From positions 1 to 22,725 of the forward strand of contig JAMCWY010000020.1 in NCBI GenBank assembly GCA_023480925.1: a DNA stretch of 22,725 bases, given 5' to 3'. The translations under genes and the position numbers were made by a program. The notes beneath the pieces are model-generated. The model worked only from the letters and a program-made list of their open reading frames with translations, searched no databases and was not told the DNA's origin. Origin of the DNA: Patescibacteria group bacterium. Its GTDB lineage: Bacteria > Patescibacteriota > Minisyncoccia > UBA6257 > HR35. Position 1 is the first letter of the stretch; the number at the start of each line of letters is the position of its first letter. Below are positions 2,468-22,725 of this stretch, one piece after another.

Positions 2468-3112
2468 TTAGTTTGATATTTTTTGCCAAAGGGAAATCTT
2501 TGAAATTTTTAGTTGAAAAGTTTCGAAACCAAAAACGCGTTCGGTCTTGATTAACTTGTAGCCGGCTGATTCGATCAAGATCCCAATCGGTTTTGAGGCG
2601 GTCCAAAAGTTCGAGGTCAAAAGGTATTTTGTTTTAAGCGCGCTCAGGATTTTTTTCGCGTCTACTTTGGTTAGATAGTATAAAATCTCGGTCGCGAGAG
2701 TTAAATCAAATTCATTTTGCGAAAAAAAATTACCGAGAGAGTTGGCATCGGCGTTAATAAAACAAACCCCGGGCGCTTTTTGGTACGCTTTTGCGATCGC
2801 GGTCGGACTAATTTCAACCGCGGTAACGTTTGGACAAAAAGAAGCAAGTTTTTTGGTTAGGTCGCCTTCAGCGCAGCCGATTTCAAGAAGATTTTTCGGT
2901 CTAATCATTTTGGCCACTTCAACAACGCGATTGAAACGATTTTTTTCCCAAGCCGAATTTTGAAAGTTCCACGGATCGGTTTGGCGTTGGAAAAGTTTTT
3001 CAAACTGTTCGCTTCGGCTTTTGAATTTTTTCGGCGCGTAACGAAAACAAATAAAAAGTTTTTTAATTGAATTCATCTGTCTGATTATAATTGAACTGGC
3101 CGTCTTAGCCAA
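2468..3112 (-). CDS. NodS-like class I SAM-dependent methyltransferase
   Basis: Contains the DPWNFQNSAWEKNRF N-terminal motif typical of NodS-family enzymes and SAM motif I LLEIGCAEGDLTKKL. The track start at 3112 is TTG. ATG at 3076 (MNSIKKLF...) is an equally plausible start. Confidence 0.7.
   Translation of the reverse strand: MAKTASSIIIRQMNSIKKLFICFRYAPKKFKSRSEQFEKLFQRQTDPWNFQNSAWEKNRFNRVVEVAKMIRPKNLLEIGCAEGDLTKKLASFCPNVTAVEISPTAIAKAYQKAPGVCFINADANSLGNFFSQNEFDLTLATEILYYLTKVDAKKILSALKTKYLLTSNFWTASKPIGILIESAGYKLIKTERVFGFETFQLKISKISLWQKISN
2558..2665. repeat. Inverted repeat partner of 1..108, lying inside the methyltransferase CDS
   Basis: See feature 1..108. Confidence 0.9.
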
Positions 3113-15289: not shown

Positions 15290-16972
15290 ATGAAAAACAA
15301 GAAACTAAAATACATTTTTGTCGCTGGTGGCGTTATGTCGGGCGTGGGTAAGGGTGTTAGTGTTTCTTCGATTGCCAAAATTATTCAGTGGCAAGGTTTA
15401 AAAGTTACTTGCGTCAAGATTGATCCTTATGTCAATGTCGACGCCGGAACGATGAATCCGACCGAACACGGCGAGGTTTTTGTTTTAAGCGATGGTCTTG
15501 AGTGCGATCAGGATATGGGCAATTATGAAAGATTTTTGGGCGAGAATCTTTCTCGTTCAAATTATTTAACCACCGGCAGTATTTATCTTGACGTGATCAA
15601 AAAAGAACGGGCCTTAAAATACGATGGTCGTTGCGTTGAAGTCGTGCCGCATATTCCTTTAGCGATTTTGGCCAAAATTAACCAGGCTGCGATTGAGAGT
15701 CAGGCCGATGTCATTATTGTTGAGATTGGCGGAACCGTGGGCGAGTATCAGAATATTCTTTTTCTTGAAGCGATTAGAATTTTGAAAACAAAAAAACCGG
15801 CTGACGTCGTTTTAGCTTTGGTCAGTTGGCTGCCTTATCAAGGCTTAGGGAGTGAGTTAAAAACCAAACCAACTCAGTACGCGGTCAGAACAATCAACGC
15901 CGTCGGTCTTCAACCTGACGTCATTATCGCTCGAGCCGCCTTTGCTCTTGACCAAAAACGTAAAGAAAAAATCGCCTTTAACTGCAATCTTAAAGAAGAA
16001 GAAATTATTTCAGCGCCTGATATTAAGATTATTTACGAAGCCCCGCTGAATTTTGAGCGGGATAATTTGGGCCGAGTCATTTTAAAAAAATTAAATTTAA
16101 AAAAGAAGTATAAAAAAACCGATCGTTTGGTTTGGTCAAAACTGATCAGAACGGTCAAAACGGCCAAGGCTGAACTTCGGATCGGCGTTGTCGGAAAATA
16201 TTTCGCCAGTGGCAACTTTATCTTGTCCGATTCGTATATTTCGGTCATTGAGGCGATTAAACATGCCGCTTATTTTTTTAAACGCCAACCGATAATCGAA
16301 TGGCTCTCAGCCGATGATTTTGATCCCGCTTACGTAAAAACAAAGGTCAAAGAAAATTTGTTGAAATTAAAAAAACTTGACGGTGTCATTGTCCCGGGCG
16401 GATTTGGTTCGCGCGCGGTCGAGGGAAAGATTAACGCGATTCGTTTTTGCCGCGAAAATAAAATACCGTTTTTTGGCCTCTGCTACGGTATGCAGTTGAT
16501 GGTTATCGAATTCGCCCGTCATCTTACCGGTTTAAACCAAGCTCAGACAACCGAGATTGACCCGGCCACACCCGCGCCGGTCATTGACATCTTACCCGAA
16601 CAAAAAAATAACTTAACCAACCAAGCCTTTGGCGCAACAATGCGCTTGGGTTCTTATCCGGCGATCTTGGCCGAAAAAACGATTGCGGCCAAAGCTTATG
16701 GTCAGACGAAAATCAGTGAACGTCACCGTCATCGTTACGAAGTCAATCCCGCTCATGTTGAAACTTTAACAAAAGCTGGTCTGATTTTTTCCGGTTTCTC
16801 GCCCGATAAACGATTGATGGAGATTGCCGAGTTGCCAAAAAACAAACACCCGTTTTTTCTTGGCGTTCAGTTTCATCCCGAATTTCAATCCTATCCGCTT
16901 AAACCTCAACCATTGTTCAAAGAGTTTATTCGCGCTTGCTTAAAACGACGGTTAATTGGAAATCAAAAATAA
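15290..16972 (+). CDS. pyrG: CTP synthase
   Basis: KYIFVAGGVMSGVGKG N-terminus, DPYVNVDAGTMNP, GATase GLCYGMQL, HRHRYEVN, QFHPEF. Confidence 0.95.
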   Translation: MKNKKLKYIFVAGGVMSGVGKGVSVSSIAKIIQWQGLKVTCVKIDPYVNVDAGTMNPTEHGEVFVLSDGLECDQDMGNYERFLGENLSRSNYLTTGSIYLDVIKKERALKYDGRCVEVVPHIPLAILAKINQAAIESQADVIIVEIGGTVGEYQNILFLEAIRILKTKKPADVVLALVSWLPYQGLGSELKTKPTQYAVRTINAVGLQPDVIIARAAFALDQKRKEKIAFNCNLKEEEIISAPDIKIIYEAPLNFERDNLGRVILKKLNLKKKYKKTDRLVWSKLIRTVKTAKAELRIGVVGKYFASGNFILSDSYISVIEAIKHAAYFFKRQPIIEWLSADDFDPAYVKTKVKENLLKLKKLDGVIVPGGFGSRAVEGKINAIRFCRENKIPFFGLCYGMQLMVIEFARHLTGLNQAQTTEIDPATPAPVIDILPEQKNNLTNQAFGATMRLGSYPAILAEKTIAAKAYGQTKISERHRHRYEVNPAHVETLTKAGLIFSGFSPDKRLMEIAELPKNKHPFFLGVQFHPEFQSYPLKPQPLFKEFIRACLKRRLIGNQK

Positions 16973-18924: not shown

Positions 18925-19158
18925 TGGTTTTAACGATATTTAATTGTATCACTTATTATTCCAATATAAGTTTTATGTTTCATTTGATCTTGGCGAATAT
19001 AATCTTTCCGGCCGGCCAAGAATCATGAGAGCATATTTGGGTTTGTGGGAAGACTACAGAAAAGTTCACGACATCGTTGAAGAAAATTACGTGTTTAAGT
19101 AAAAACGCGACCGCGTAAATAATTTTTTCGTCGAGCCGTTCACGAATAAAACTGCCTC

Positions 19159-19193: not shown

Positions 19194-20663
19194 ATGAACA
19201 ATACTCTGAAACCATTTAAAAATATGACACGACGAGAATCTATATTAATAATCGTTGGCGTCGTTTTTGTTGTCGTAGCGGCTTTAATTTTTCTTAGAAT
19301 ATATAATAATTCGACGGAAATGTCCTCCAAAGAAGTCGGAATACACAAAATTCAGCATGTTATAGTTATATTTCAGGAAAACAGATCTTTTGATTCATAT
19401 TTTGGCGCTTATCCAGGGGCCGACGGTATCCCTATGAAAAATGGCGTTTCAACGGTTTGCGTACCCGATCCAGTAAGCGGTGCGTGTGTCAAGCCGTACG
19501 TAGATCATAACGATAGCAATCATGGCGGGCCGCATGACGCCTCAGCTTCAGCCGTAGATATAAATAACGGTAAATTAGACGGTTTCATTAAAGAAGCGGA
19601 AAGAGGCAAAAAGGATTGTCGCAATGTCACTAGCCCGAATTGTAGCCTAAGCAACTCTACCGATGTGATGGGGTATCATACGGAAAGCGACATACCTAAT
19701 TATTGGGCTTATGCCCGAAACTTTGTTCTTCAAGATCATATGTTTGAATCTGTTCATTCTTGGAGTTTCCCTTCTCATCTTTTTTTGGTTTCAGATTGGT
19801 CGGCAGATTGTACTGATCCACAAAATCCTCTTTCTTGCACGAGTTCTTTGATGCCAAACGACAGGAGTCAGAAAGATCTGGAGCCGTTTGGCTGGACAGA
19901 CTTAACTTATCTTCTTAATAAAAATGGCGTCTCGTGGGCTTATTACCTTGATGGTGGCGCCGGTCCTCTAGAAACTGTCGGGAAAAAAACCTCCAACAAA
20001 CAGGCCAGGCCCAAAAACAAAACCTCCCAAAAAGCCAGAGAGCTTAATAAAAAGAGTGGCGTACCTGAGATTTGGAATGTCCTGCCCGGTTTTGTAGATG
20101 TGCACCAAGATAATCAAATTAGTAACGTTAAGAATCTAAATGAATACTTTGTTGCAGCTAAAGACGGGACTCTGCCAGCCGTCTCCTGGATTGTGCCTAA
20201 TGCCAAAGACAGCGAGCACCCGCCGGCTTTGGTTAGTGATGGTCAGTCTTATGTGACACGTATCATCAATGCCGCTATGAAAAGTCCTGATTGGCCGAGT
20301 ACCGCTATTTTTCTAACTTGGGATGATTGGGGTGGATTTTATGACCACGTTCTGCCGCCTCAGATTGACAGTTTGGGTTACGGTATCCGGACGCCCGGTC
20401 TCGTCATTAGCCCTTATGCCAAGAAAGGCTACATTGACCACCAAGTTTTGAGTTTTGATGCTTACTCAAAATTTATAGAAGACGATTTTATGAACGGTCA
20501 GCGTTTGAATCCAAAAACAGATGGCCGACCCGACAGTCGTCCCGACGTTAGAGAAAACAGTTCAATACTTGGAAATCTCTTAAACGATTTTGATTTCAAT
20601 CAAAGTCCAAGACAGCCACTAATTTTGCCGGTGAATCCGACAACCACACTAATTAATAAATGA
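19194..20663 (+). CDS. Phosphoesterase family protein (phospholipase C / acid phosphatase AcpA family), membrane anchored
   Basis: HVIVIFQENRSFDSYFG and TWDDWGGFYDHV motifs characteristic of PF04185-type phosphoesterases. N-terminal TM helix. Internal Lys-rich low-complexity insert. Confidence 0.8.
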   Translation: MNNTLKPFKNMTRRESILIIVGVVFVVVAALIFLRIYNNSTEMSSKEVGIHKIQHVIVIFQENRSFDSYFGAYPGADGIPMKNGVSTVCVPDPVSGACVKPYVDHNDSNHGGPHDASASAVDINNGKLDGFIKEAERGKKDCRNVTSPNCSLSNSTDVMGYHTESDIPNYWAYARNFVLQDHMFESVHSWSFPSHLFLVSDWSADCTDPQNPLSCTSSLMPNDRSQKDLEPFGWTDLTYLLNKNGVSWAYYLDGGAGPLETVGKKTSNKQARPKNKTSQKARELNKKSGVPEIWNVLPGFVDVHQDNQISNVKNLNEYFVAAKDGTLPAVSWIVPNAKDSEHPPALVSDGQSYVTRIINAAMKSPDWPSTAIFLTWDDWGGFYDHVLPPQIDSLGYGIRTPGLVISPYAKKGYIDHQVLSFDAYSKFIEDDFMNGQRLNPKTDGRPDSRPDVRENSSILGNLLNDFDFNQSPRQPLILPVNPTTTLINK

Positions 20664-20845
20664 AAGGCGCAGAAAACTGATGCGGCGTTTGTCCAGTCAA
20701 GTTTACTTCTATCACTTTGTTATGTGATGCCGCGCCGGAAAACGACAACCGCGCGGGTGACGGAATTCGTTTGGACGGCTCGCGAGCAAAAAATTTTCCT
20801 CCCCCCTTCGCCCCCTCCATTTTTTGCCCGTTCGCTCAAGAACTC

Positions 20846-20874
20846 TTGCATAAAGTATTGATTTACTGTATATT
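20846..20874 (+). promoter_or_regulatory. Near-consensus sigma70-type promoter of the radical SAM cassette
   Basis: TTGCAT (20846..20851), a 17-nt spacer, then TATATT (20869..20874), about 80 nt upstream of ATG 20957. Confidence 0.55.
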
Positions 20875-20895
20875 ATTCTTAGATATTATTCTTAG
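20870..20895 (+). repeat. Perfect 13-bp tandem direct repeat (ATATTATTCTTAG x2) overlapping the -10 and start-site region
   Basis: 20870..20882 equals 20883..20895, and the next three bases (ATA) begin a third unit. Confidence 0.85.
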
Positions 20896-20896
20896 A

Positions 20897-20919
20897 TAGA
20901 AACTCATGATGAGTTTCTA
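20897..20919. promoter_or_regulatory. Perfect palindrome TAGAAACTCAT-G-ATGAGTTTCTA: candidate operator or 5'-UTR hairpin
   Basis: 11-bp arms are exact reverse complements around a single central base. It lies between the predicted -10 and the RBS (AAAGGA at 20944..20949). Confidence 0.6.
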
Positions 20920-20956
20920 GAAAATTGAGTACATTTACAACAGAAAGGAACCTGCA

Positions 20957-22396
20957 ATGGCACTTAATTTCAACGTCGCCTATGTGAAGTCGCCGTTCAT
21001 GCAGGTCGTCCGGGACGGCGACTCTGCGGTGATCTGGCATTCGCTGTTTGGTTACCCCAAAGTCGTCTCTGCTGAGACGCTTGAGTTTCTTCAATCGTTC
21101 TCGGAGCCGACAACGATCCGCTCGCAACTCGGCGATGAACTGAATAATGAAGATCGAGAGATGATTGAGGAACTGTTGCGGTGTTATTCCCTCATCCTTG
21201 AGGATTTCAACGACCGAGCGTTTCTCGAAGAAAAGATGCGGGAACGCGAAGCGGAAATCGTCAACGGTTCGCTGATTGATTATCTCGAGCTCATTGTGAG
21301 TGAGGCGTGCAACTTCCGCTGTACCTACTGCATCCACTTCAACAATCTGGAAACTTCGGACCGTATCAACAACCCAAAGAAGTTTATGCGGTTTGAGACA
21401 GCCAGGGAGACAGTGGATCGCTATCTCAAGATACTCCGCGACCACGGAAAACGCACCGCCGAAATCAATTTTGGTGGGGGCGAACCGTTGCTGGCATGGC
21501 CGGTTATCAAGCAAGTACTCGAATACTGCCGTGCTACTTACGGCTCGGAATTCGAGTTCCGCTTCTCTATCAACACGAATGCTTCGCTCATCACGCCGGA
21601 GATCGCCGCGACTCTCAAAAAATTCCACGTCGAAATTGCCTCCAGTCTTGATGGCTTGCGCGAAGGGAATGACCGCGTTCGACTGACAAAGTCGGGAGGC
21701 AGCACATTCTCCCAGATCATGCGTGGTTTCGAAGCGTTAGGTCAAGTGGGATACCCGCTTGATGGCGTCGCGGTAACGATCATTGAAAAAAATTTTCACC
21801 AGCTTGATGAGTCGATTATCGACTGGGCAGTATCTCGCGGCATGAAGAATGTCAGAATCGATATCGACGTAGTCGACATAGTGGAAATCCCAGTCGAGGA
21901 AGTGGTCACAAAACTGATGCGTATTCGACGCTACGCGGCGGCACGAGGAGTTGATGTTCCTGATTTTTGGTCTCGACCAGCCGAGAACCTCAACGAATCA
22001 ACGCTCGAAAGCCGCGTTGCGTTCTGTGGCGCAGTTCGCGGCAACAGCATGTGCGTAGGCCCATCCGGGAATATCTACGGATGCGGTTACAGCACAACCC
22101 AACTCGGCAATCTCTCTGAAATCCAATCGTTTCATGCGCCTGGCACTGCTTATCATCGCTTTGTGATAGATCATCTCACCGGAGTGATGGAGATGTGCAA
22201 GGGTTGTATGATCGAGGGGCAGTGTGGCGGTGGTTGTAACATCACGCAAGAGTTCGCTCGGGCAACAAAAACTGCCAAAATCGAACGAACGTGTGACTTC
22301 TATCGTCGTATGACCCAAGAGATTCTCCGAGAACAACTGCGGGAAGCGACGGCGCCAAAGCTAGAACTTCTCCAAGCTGCAACAGAAAGGAGGTGA
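20957..22396 (+). CDS. Radical SAM / SPASM-domain peptide-modifying enzyme with an N-terminal PqqD-like (RRE-type) extension
   Basis: The radical SAM motif CNFRCTYC (C118/C122/C125) comes after a roughly 115-aa N-terminal domain (DSAVIWHSLFGYPKVVSAETLEFLQSF...REMIEELLRCYSLI) that looks like a beta-strand and winged-helix RRE. It also has the GGGEPLL motif. A full SPASM signature is present: C..MCVGPSGNIYGCG then CKGCMIEGQCGGGC (CX2CX5CX3C) and a final C in ERTCDFY. Confidence 0.9.
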   Translation: MALNFNVAYVKSPFMQVVRDGDSAVIWHSLFGYPKVVSAETLEFLQSFSEPTTIRSQLGDELNNEDREMIEELLRCYSLILEDFNDRAFLEEKMREREAEIVNGSLIDYLELIVSEACNFRCTYCIHFNNLETSDRINNPKKFMRFETARETVDRYLKILRDHGKRTAEINFGGGEPLLAWPVIKQVLEYCRATYGSEFEFRFSINTNASLITPEIAATLKKFHVEIASSLDGLREGNDRVRLTKSGGSTFSQIMRGFEALGQVGYPLDGVAVTIIEKNFHQLDESIIDWAVSRGMKNVRIDIDVVDIVEIPVEEVVTKLMRIRRYAAARGVDVPDFWSRPAENLNESTLESRVAFCGAVRGNSMCVGPSGNIYGCGYSTTQLGNLSEIQSFHAPGTAYHRFVIDHLTGVMEMCKGCMIEGQCGGGCNITQEFARATKTAKIERTCDFYRRMTQEILREQLREATAPKLELLQAATERR

Positions 22397-22401
22397 ATGT
22401 C

Positions 22402-22506
22402 ATGCAGAAGGCACAGCAGAAGCAGCCGCGGCCGGCTCTCAAGGTCAAGGCGCTGCCGAAGCTGAAGGCGCTGATGACTTGTCGGCGCCCCAGTAACTGC
22501 CACTAA
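22402..22506 (+). CDS. Unannotated 34-aa ORF, candidate RiPP precursor peptide: MQKAQQKQPRPALKVKALPKLKALMTCRRPSNCH
   Basis: The ATG lies 5 nt after the maturase stop, and AAGGAGG (22387..22393) is 8 nt upstream. The G+C-rich composition matches the maturase. Two Cys fall in the last 8 residues. It is below the 60-aa cutoff of the supplied ORF track. Confidence 0.6.
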   Translation: MQKAQQKQPRPALKVKALPKLKALMTCRRPSNCH

Positions 22507-22561
22507 GCGTGGCTTCACGGGGCTAAGGAAAAGTATTACACCTACCTTACCCATTTTATTT

Positions 22562-22725
22562 ATGAATAAAATTTATTTAAGAAAAATTAAATACATCGAT
22601 AAAAAATATTTTGCAAAATGGTGGAGAGATAAGGAACTGCTTAAATTAACAAGTGGTATTTTGAAACGTATTTCGGACCAAGAAGTTGATAAATATTTTC
22701 AAATTATTTTAAAAAGTAAAGACAG
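22562..22725 (+). CDS. 5' part of an AT-rich host-type gene, possibly a GNAT-family N-acetyltransferase (3' end outside the window)
   Basis: MNKIYLRKIKYIDKKYFAKWWRDKELLKLTSG... resembles the LRP..D...L..W.ND.EV.KY N-terminus of RimJ/RimL-like GNATs. Only 54 codons are visible. Confidence 0.35.
   Translation, partial: MNKIYLRKIKYIDKKYFAKWWRDKELLKLTSGILKRISDQEVDKYFQIILKSKD

Follow-up and report, generated by a model that had tools for sequence, protein, structure and literature searches.

A probable RiPP maturase–precursor pair on a mobile three-gene cassette recurring across Patescibacteria

Here we describe a small gene cassette at the end of contig JAMCWY010000020.1 from a Patescibacteria group bacterium; the window analysed is this whole 22,725-bp contig. 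The cassette begins with an intact gene for a radical S-adenosylmethionine (SAM) enzyme with a SPASM domain, followed by a 34-codon open reading frame (ORF), a hairpin and the start of a GNAT acetyltransferase gene that is cut by the contig end (Table 1). We consider it probable that the first two genes form a maturase–precursor pair for a ribosomally synthesised and post-translationally modified peptide (RiPP), carried on a mobile three-gene cassette, in which the enzyme would recognise its substrate through an N-terminal RiPP recognition element (RRE). An earlier note on this DNA had recognised the pair and described it as a minimal two-gene cassette. Homologous loci correct this description, as a conserved third gene for a GNAT, a nucleotidyltransferase (NTase) or a class I methyltransferase (MTase) is present, and the whole is a horizontally spread unit with palindromic borders that the note had missed. 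The unusual aspects of the system are this three-gene architecture with a swappable transferase, the palindromic borders, presence or absence at the level of strains, and the spread among Patescibacteria.

Table 1. Features of the cassette in the window, and the third-gene types found across loci
Feature	Position	Strand	Remarks
Left border element E, palindromic: GGCTCGCGAGCAAAAAA, C-rich loop, TTTTTTGCCCGTTCGCT	20777..20836	.	single copy in window
Promoter-like TTGCAT-N17-TATATT	20846..20874	+	from cross-locus conservation only
Perfect palindrome GAAACTCATGATGAGTTTC	20899..20917	+	between promoter and ribosome-binding site; read from sequence
Gene for candidate RRE / radical SAM / SPASM peptide maturase	20957..22396	+	intact ORF, 479 aa
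Enzyme subregions	residues ~1-105 (RRE, putative); 118-125 (CX3CX2C); 357-446 (SPASM cysteines)		
Gene for probable 34-aa precursor peptide	22402..22506	+	ATG 22402, stop 22504-22506; conserved beside enzyme across loci
Peptide core T26-C-R-R-P-S-N-C-H34	22477-22503	+	leader cationic, LKVKxLPKLKVL
Hairpin and T-run, intrinsic terminator or attenuator	22519..22562	+	between peptide and third gene
GNAT acetyltransferase gene, 5' part (54 codons)	22562..22725	+	cut by contig end; 81% identical to start of L016 GNAT
Third-gene type: NTase			239 aa; n=14 loci
Third-gene type: GNAT			~160 aa; n=10 near loci, also L029-L032
Third-gene type: MTase			211 aa; n=4 loci

The enzyme is identical to NCBI entry MCL5258067.1, annotated as 'radical SAM protein', and carries every landmark that the earlier note had read from it, namely the CX3CX2C motif (C118-N-F-R-C122-T-Y-C125), the GGEP motif (residues 174-177) and a seven-cysteine SPASM pattern (C357...G371-x4-C376 / C414-x2-C417-x5-C423-x3-C427 / C446; residue numbers are those of the 479-aa window enzyme). 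The seven cysteines are retained in relatives down to 31% identity, and the region aligns with the SPASM domains of TigE and CteB; by this pattern the enzyme is a SPASM protein, with two auxiliary [4Fe-4S] clusters predicted. Of the hidden Markov model (HMM) searches that the note had proposed, the one with PF04055 succeeded, scoring 67.5 bits against a cut-off of 29.5 and placing the protein in the radical SAM superfamily. Radical_SAM and Fer4_12 were its only Pfam matches; the SPASM HMM did not find the window protein at E<=0.1, and the PqqD HMM did not match it either. Decay of the window copy was ruled out, its three deviations at conserved sites lying within the normal range among homologues.

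The ligands of the auxiliary clusters bear on the chemistry to be expected. Seven conserved cysteines stand against eight ligand positions, and the place of Tyr339, a ligand of auxiliary cluster I (Aux I) in TigE, is taken by Phe. Aux I therefore probably has an open site that the substrate could fill, which would favour Cys-based chemistry. Open Aux I sites have been described as filled by another cysteine or by part of the substrate, with CteB among the cited examples (PMC10878394). An eighth cysteine, C366, is specific to the close enzyme family; it was ruled out as a general fourth Aux I ligand, since locus L032 lacks it yet retains an SNC peptide.

An RRE at the N-terminus, as claimed in the earlier note, is supported by homology and predicted topology, not by an HMM, and leader binding is putative. 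A profile of residues 1-108 matches the RRE of TigE (8VPO residues 4-110) at E=2e-9. In the AlphaFold model of the enzyme (mean predicted local distance difference test score, pLDDT, 72), strands at residues 8-38 are followed by three helices at 39-75, with block-mean pLDDT values of 81-94 over residues 1-90 and 70 for 91-100. The depositors of 8VPO describe TigE residues 3-85 as an RRE of the usual winged helix-turn-helix (wHTH) kind (PMC10878394), and this structure is among the references used to validate RRE models (PMC12710340).

The short ORF, translated as MQKAQQKQPRPALKVKALPKLKALMTCRRPSNCH, lies where the note had placed it, with its ATG 5 bases past the enzyme's TGA (22394-22396) and 8 bases past an AGGAGG (22388-22393). 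Peptide genes elsewhere were located by six-frame motif scans of loci fetched from a genome scan (24 loci, enzymes 57-88% identical to the window protein) and a metagenome scan (enzymes 38-68%). The same short ORF stands in the same place in 25 of the first 28 loci (L001-L028, all of which hold an enzyme relative except L001), the window being the 26th, and diverged relatives carry one as well, which answers the note's call for a neighbourhood check. Across loci the consensus is MQKxQxKQRPxLKVKxLPKLKVLxTCQxPSNCH, in which C27, S31, N32 and C33 (also numbered C(-8), S(-4), N(-3) and C(-2)) never vary, and T26 and H34 hardly ever do; leader positions, unlike these C-terminal Cys, Ser, Asn and Cys residues, tolerate substitutions. 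The codons of the invariant residues vary among 29 distinct DNA versions (TGT/TGC, AGT/AGC), and all three stops, TAA, TGA and TAG, are in use without any shift in position. Because of this synonymous variation, the short ORF is judged to be a real gene under purifying selection and, as a conserved and selected partner of the enzyme, it is very probably the substrate, in agreement with the note.

The peptides beside more diverged enzymes (38-68%) end in ..CRRPSNCH, ..CRRASNCH, ..CRLPSNCRH, ..SCDFYNCD or ..CSTYQKSSNCH. From these alignments, the constrained core is an upstream Cys, a spacer of 3-7 residues, (S)-N-C, and then one or two residues before the stop; of the core TCRRPSNCH proposed earlier, the C...(S)NC-x-stop skeleton is constrained and the whole stretch is not. 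Several loci show the pair in altered form. The radical SAM gene is disrupted into two ORFs at L018 (6001-7410), where the peptide gene and NTase are intact, while at L025 (4043-4414) only the last 123 codons of the enzyme gene are left and there is no peptide. At L022 (3316-8313), a second radical SAM gene lies on the other strand, and the SNCH peptide gene is on the minus strand, convergent with the NTase.

The third gene starts about 10 bases past the hairpin and T-run. ORF clustering over the loci yielded exactly three recurrent neighbours, the NTase, the GNAT and the MTase, and one or more of them lie 3' of the peptide throughout L002-L028 wherever downstream sequence is available, except at the L025 remnant; at the diverged locus L033, the place is taken by an unassigned 218-aa protein. 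By profile all three types are generic. In the NTase a catalytic G-S...D-x-D motif is invariant, with weak similarity at this motif to Lnu, KNTase and HalB, the GNAT is similar to RimI and AAC(6') (the L016 copy matches Pfam Acetyltransf_3 and Acetyltransf_1), and the MTase weakly resembles TehB and Erm, all with scores far below the family cut-offs. At L005, L007, L008 and L016, the sequence past the GNAT stop is the 3' half of an NTase gene, and these remnants show that the 5' part of the ancestral NTase gave way in situ to a GNAT, or to an MTase plus GNAT. Moreover, L048/L049 (4850-5720) hold an intact NTase (72% identical) in the absence of a radical SAM gene, and all that is left in front of it is the hairpin and the final 12 codons of the peptide gene; this arrangement is best described as a decayed cassette that kept its third gene.

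Regulatory sequences are shared as well. The promoter block CTCTTGCATAAAnTATTGATTTACTGTATAnTAT is conserved in L038, L041, L026 and L004, with a similar block 5' of the gene in L003, and the promoter was assigned from this cross-locus conservation, the post-peptide hairpin from cross-locus conservation together with folding; a simple promoter/terminator consensus scan flagged neither the promoter hexamers nor the hairpin. The window has a private tandem duplication of ATATTATTCTTAG at 20870-20895, just past the -10 box. The palindrome GAAACTCATGATGAGTTTC, conserved in L003, L004, L026, L038 and L041, could be an operator or a hairpin of the 5' untranslated region. A strong hairpin with a T-run lies directly 3' of the peptide in every locus, its stem sequences differing in diverged loci. 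Rfam returned nothing better than E=0.9 over 20500-22725, and PADLOC gave only generic viperin-core, minimal-NTase and MTase matches. The earlier note's statement that the island contains no protease or exporter holds for the cassette at every locus examined, although the island itself is larger than the note had drawn it.

Several lines of evidence indicate that this cassette comes and goes as a single block and has been passed on horizontally between Patescibacteria. The radical SAM gene and peptide have a GC content of 0.45-0.56 in the close family (GC3, at third codon positions, 0.47-0.70), against host backgrounds of 0.35 to 0.62; in the window, GC is 0.52-0.55 over 21000-22500 versus about 0.40 for the remainder. 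This constancy of cassette GC, whatever the GC of the host, supports mobility, and the unit's base composition is foreign. The NTase or GNAT is at 0.26-0.36 in most loci, and the GNAT start in the window is at 0.23 versus 0.52 for the radical SAM gene. Furthermore, loci with unrelated flanks share one DNA block of about 2.5 kb at 76-88% identity, which starts at the palindromic element, takes in the promoter, radical SAM gene, peptide and terminator, and stops where the third gene ends; for example, window 20779-22584 aligns with L038 6836-8632. The unit as a whole measures about 2.5-3 kb.

The border element E has the general form GGGCAAAAAA, asymmetric C-rich loop, TTTTTTGCCC, and homologues stand at cassette borders in L002, L004, L016, L017, L026 and L038-L043. 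It occurs at both ends as an inverted pair in L002, L038 and L040 and as a direct pair in L041, and at the one visible end in the window, L004, L016, L017, L026 and L042; it was found nowhere else in the 530 kb of sequence fetched. Flanking inverted repeats reach 210 nt (97%) or 288 nt (99.3%) in some loci. Many homologues lie on contigs of 1.6-3 kb, and L040 ends inside both repeat arms, which fits assembly breaks at repeats; that the inverted repeats are themselves assembly artefacts was ruled out, as they occur in contigs of 45-237 kb from independent samples and assemblers. In seven loci (L003, L005, L007, L020, L026, L038 and L041, with tRNA-Tyr/Thr, Gly, Asn, Thr, Leu, Leu and Leu, respectively), transfer RNA genes are found at most about 300 nt from a cassette edge, commoner than expected for one tRNA per ~20 kb. 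An eighth locus, L048, has tRNA-like sequences on both flanks as read by eye, not scanned. At L038, a 12-nt direct repeat, GATACATTGTGC, stands at the outer junctions of the repeat arms, at the 3' end of tRNA-Leu. Neither an integrase or transposase in or beside the cassette nor a consistent target-site duplication, features by which an integron gene cassette or an IS- or MITE-type element is recognised, was found at the loci examined.

Strain-level absence is illustrated by L050, a 178-kb contig that shares 15.5 kb of synteny with the window at a nucleotide identity of 95-96%. The homology ends at window position 20792, inside E, and L050 then continues with E in the opposite loop orientation; the radical SAM gene, the peptide and the cassette GNAT are all missing from it. 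At the cassette-less site, two E copies lie in the same orientation, 190 nt apart (16612-16842), and the sequence between them has its homologue in the outer stretch of the repeat arm of L002; this E pair could represent either a miniature element without cargo or the scar of a deletion. The site could have been left by two inverted E copies recombining within their palindromic stems or, equally, be a pre-insertion target. A second indel separates the two contigs near window position 18990, where L050 (13714-14816) has an extra 1.1 kb with a GNAT gene and a CYTH-domain gene, between a pilin-LamG gene and a phosphoesterase gene. This extra GNAT was ruled out as an orphan cassette copy, being 27% identical to the cassette GNAT.

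The other end of the window holds repeats of its own. A 108-nt inverted repeat (1-108 / 2558-2665, 99% complementary) and a 139-nt direct repeat (693-831 / 1902-2040) enclose gene fragments, namely a degenerate radical SAM fragment (ORF 60-368, with CNNRCPHY replacing CX3CX2C and GGEP retained), an ABC-ATPase fragment and the duplicated 3' end of the methyltransferase gene at 2468-3112. The inverted repeat was ruled out as a relative of the cassette borders, as it consists of this duplicated methyltransferase end, and positions 1-2665 look like a rearranged junk area.

The enzyme family is large. An exhaustive search of 1.84 billion representatives returned 268 clusters at E<=1e-30, continuous from 60% to ~30% identity, and a word-indexed search returned at least 120 clusters (90% identity level) at 65-89% protein identity. 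Labels among the latter include Magasanikbacteria, Brennerbacteria, Uhrbacteria, Peregrinibacteria, Saccharibacteria, Portnoybacteria and Parcubacteria; the genome scan added Ryanbacteria and an NTase look-up Azambacteria. A few carriers (L004, L007, L008, L018 and L021) bear labels from outside the Candidate Phyla Radiation (CPR), namely Omnitrophica, Gammaproteobacteria, Anaerolineales or Pseudonocardiaceae. In one of them, L021 (a 128-kb contig, GC 0.62), cassette GC is up at 0.54-0.56, which points to a genuine, older transfer beyond Patescibacteria and not to mis-binning. No relative was found on viral contigs, and plasmids yielded only relatives of at most 27% identity, such as the FibroRumin and PeaB maturases. 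In an Azambacteria contig of 585 kb (L046/L047, 299-8230), three radical SAM / SPASM genes lie within 8 kb, and each has a Cys-rich short ORF of its own beside it. One of the three belongs to the SNCH family and is accompanied by its NTase; the other two peptides end in ..CQADPTCDFD and ..CPSCCTCLCPST. Small arrays of such cassettes thus occur in some Patescibacteria.

Placed against described systems, neither the enzyme nor the peptide belongs to any curated or described family, as the earlier note had suspected. By mechanism class the two are a known kind of radical SAM / SPASM RiPP pair, and many other radical SAM / SPASM peptide families likewise await characterisation. Pfam and NCBIfam (release June 2026, curated cut-offs) hold no model for the enzyme family, and the peptide has no match in either. 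All 67 NCBIfam matches of the enzyme fall far below the cut-offs, the top models being PapB, nif11 maturase, anSME, QhpD, CcpM, HxsB and SCIFF; the enzyme does not cluster with anSME or a cofactor-biosynthesis family, whereas clustering of that kind was what the note had named as grounds for abandoning its reading. The literature yielded nothing relevant on a PSNCH motif or on CPR/Patescibacteria in combination with radical SAM, RiPP or ranthipeptide.

Among solved structures, the family profile finds TigE (8VPO) best, over its full length and at E=2e-49, followed by CteB, anSME and ChlB, and Foldseek with the AlphaFold model returns the same order, with TigE first (E=3e-26, template modelling score 0.66-0.70). 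The closest characterised relative is therefore a cyclopropyl synthase that forms C-C bonds, and not a sactisynthase, a point that the note had missed. TigE / TvgB (8VPO, PMC10878394) shares the N-terminal wHTH RRE, the partial TIM-barrel radical SAM domain and the seven-Cys SPASM domain. However, the structural alignment shows only ~19% identity with the window enzyme, and the TigE substrate is a repeated Val/Ile motif, whereas the putative substrate here has a single-copy, Cys-containing C-terminal core and no repeats. The cassette also lacks the transporter and the second radical SAM gene of the TigE system. The family-defining GYW motif, whose Tyr339 ligates Aux I and is reported to be absolutely required for TigE activity and unique to that family (PMC10878394), aligns here with G-F-W across the family and D-F-W in the window, F337 and W338 being invariant. 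Because the Tyr ligand is absent, the family does not qualify as cyclopropyl synthases by the GYW criterion.

Other maturases share parts of the architecture. PapB, the freyrasin ranthipeptide maturase (NF047865), is the best curated match (residues 110-434) and likewise pairs a radical SAM / SPASM enzyme with a Cys-containing peptide, but the score of 136.7 bits against a cut-off of 340 places the enzyme outside that family. PapB-type precursors carry Cys-x3-Asp/Glu, while the peptide here has no such motif and no Asp or Glu in its core, the conserved candidate acceptors being Ser and Asn. CteB (5WGG), a SCIFF maturase (TIGR03974) and second-best structural match, combines an RRE with radical SAM and seven-Cys SPASM domains; the SCIFF score is 92.1 bits against 425, that for RumMC 87.1 against 720, and the peptide is not of the six-Cys-in-45 type, so that the enzyme is neither a SCIFF maturase nor a sactisynthase by these models. 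The anSME model (TIGR03942) scores 99.8 bits against 349, again placing the enzyme outside the family, and the anSME target motif is C/S-x-P/A-x-R versus C-x-x-P-S in the core here. NxxcB of streptococci, a radical SAM / SPASM enzyme that forms a beta-thioether from a Cys sulfur to an Asn carbon, offers a precedent. The likeness lies in the invariant Asn beside an invariant Cys, and the difference in N-x-x-C repeats there against C-x4-N-C at the C-terminus here.

Taken together, a RiPP maturase–precursor pair on a mobile three-gene cassette is the probable explanation of the locus. The cassette's own promoter would drive the maturase and the 34-aa precursor, the latter translationally close behind a strong Shine-Dalgarno sequence. 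The RRE would bind the cationic leader LKVKxLPKLKVL, the radical SAM site would abstract a hydrogen atom from the C-terminal core T-C-x-x-P-S-N-C-H, and the two SPASM auxiliary [4Fe-4S] clusters would take up the electron. The product would bear one or two intramolecular Cys-derived cross-links, for which we favour a thioether from Cys27 and/or Cys33 to a carbon of Ser31 / Asn32, because of the two invariant Cys residues, the standing of PapB as best curated match and the implied open Aux I site. This linkage is tentative, with a chance slightly below even, and another Cys-derived or a C-terminal modification is the alternative. With no cleavage motif, protease or exporter in evidence and a cationic leader that alternates Lys with hydrophobic residues, the full-length peptide may be the active species. 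The third gene, behind the terminator, would inactivate the product as self-protection, and the unit of 2.5-3 kb would move as a block between its palindromic borders.

Self-protection is possible but distinctly less secure than the pair itself, and tailoring of the product is less likely still. It is suggested by the interchangeability of three transferases at one position and by the retention of the orphan NTase. Analogies are the immunity to microcin C conferred by the GNAT domain of MccE and the antibiotic-modifying enzymes AAC(6'), ANT(4')/Lnu and Erm. The third-gene products are interchangeable in like manner, but their similarity to such resistance enzymes is weak and below cut-offs, and no description was found in the literature of such enzymes giving immunity to a radical SAM-modified peptide.

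A number of observations count against parts of this explanation. TigE, the closest characterised homologue, forms C-C bonds on aliphatic side chains and not thioethers, and the Cys-x3-Asp/Glu motif of PapB-type precursors is absent. The window enzyme itself carries G336D in the otherwise invariant G-F-W motif, near Aux I, and the window hairpin is weaker than those of other loci (-14.4 kcal/mol for a 75-nt stretch). No locus has a leader peptidase or exporter, which would be odd for a secreted antimicrobial and agrees just as well with an intracellular role. As to immunity, the argument from three interchangeable group-transfer enzymes and one orphan case is weak to moderate; MTase and GNAT occur together in L005 and L008, which fits tailoring equally, and the third gene has a GC content far from that of the radical SAM gene and is preceded by a terminator, which leaves its functional coupling putative.

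An intracellular role is the basis of an unlikely alternative, in which the pair makes a peptide-derived cofactor or small molecule from the C-terminal N-C-x-COOH, comparable to mycofactocin or PQQ, and the transferases decorate it. The constrained motif is indeed always at the extreme C-terminus with a fixed stop, no locus has a protease or exporter, the hosts are genome-reduced Patescibacteria, and an MftM-type methyltransferase model weakly matches the MTase. Yet no peptidase is present to release a small molecule and no redox partner recurs consistently, accessory enzymes that swap in place would give three different 'cofactors', and MftC and PqqE are absent from the best 25 of the 67 NCBIfam matches. 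Presence and absence between near-identical strains, moreover, shows the cassette behaving as accessory, mobile DNA. The kinship with TigE, best by sequence and fold over the full length including the RRE, could instead mean that the enzyme is a TigE/TvgB-like cyclopropyl synthase or other C-C bond former acting on Val or Leu of LKVKxLPKLKVL, the cysteines not being the reaction site. Val and Leu positions are conserved in the N-terminal part of the peptide, but the required Tyr of GYW is replaced, the peptide has no repeated TVGG/TIGSVS-like motif, and it is the C-terminal Cys, Ser, Asn and Cys that are invariant, while the leader varies; we regard this as very unlikely.

A reading in which the short ORF is no substrate but serves as a regulatory micro-ORF or a translationally coupled leader, with the enzyme acting on some other protein or metabolite as anSME does on sulfatases, is scarcely credible. 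The evidence linking enzyme and peptide is indirect, and the enzyme has partial matches to the anSME and QhpD models, but these lie far below the cut-offs and no locus has a sulfatase or amine dehydrogenase neighbour. The enzyme, furthermore, has a putative RRE, the peptide sequence itself is conserved down to 38% enzyme identity with synonymous variation, and the two travel together in unrelated genomic contexts.

The RiPP pair on its mobile cassette admits a bolder extension, doubtful at present, in which the unit is a selfish 'toxin factory' with drug-modifying immunity. It would make a Cys/Asn cross-linked cationic peptide antibiotic that uses no dedicated protease or exporter, be guarded by swappable neutralising transferases and move by recombination at the border element. 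If true, this would bring to light a new class of RiPP as well as a natural reservoir of resistance enzymes that modify peptide antibiotics, and the cassette would influence how ultra-small bacteria compete with one another.

Biosynthetic gene clusters are usually said to be few or lacking in Patescibacteria. One survey, for instance, reported none in its Patescibacteria metagenome-assembled genomes (PMC11613949). The recurrence of one small RiPP-type cassette across many candidate phyla of Patescibacteria contrasts with this reported scarcity. The border element and the pair of strains with and without the cassette offer a tractable case of accessory-gene movement in organisms that lack obvious mobile-element machinery. 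Should the proposed cross-links exist, the peptide would represent a new RiPP family whose nine-residue core lends itself to synthesis and testing, and if the third gene confers immunity, the cassette would link peptide natural products to the families of aminoglycoside, lincosamide and macrolide resistance.

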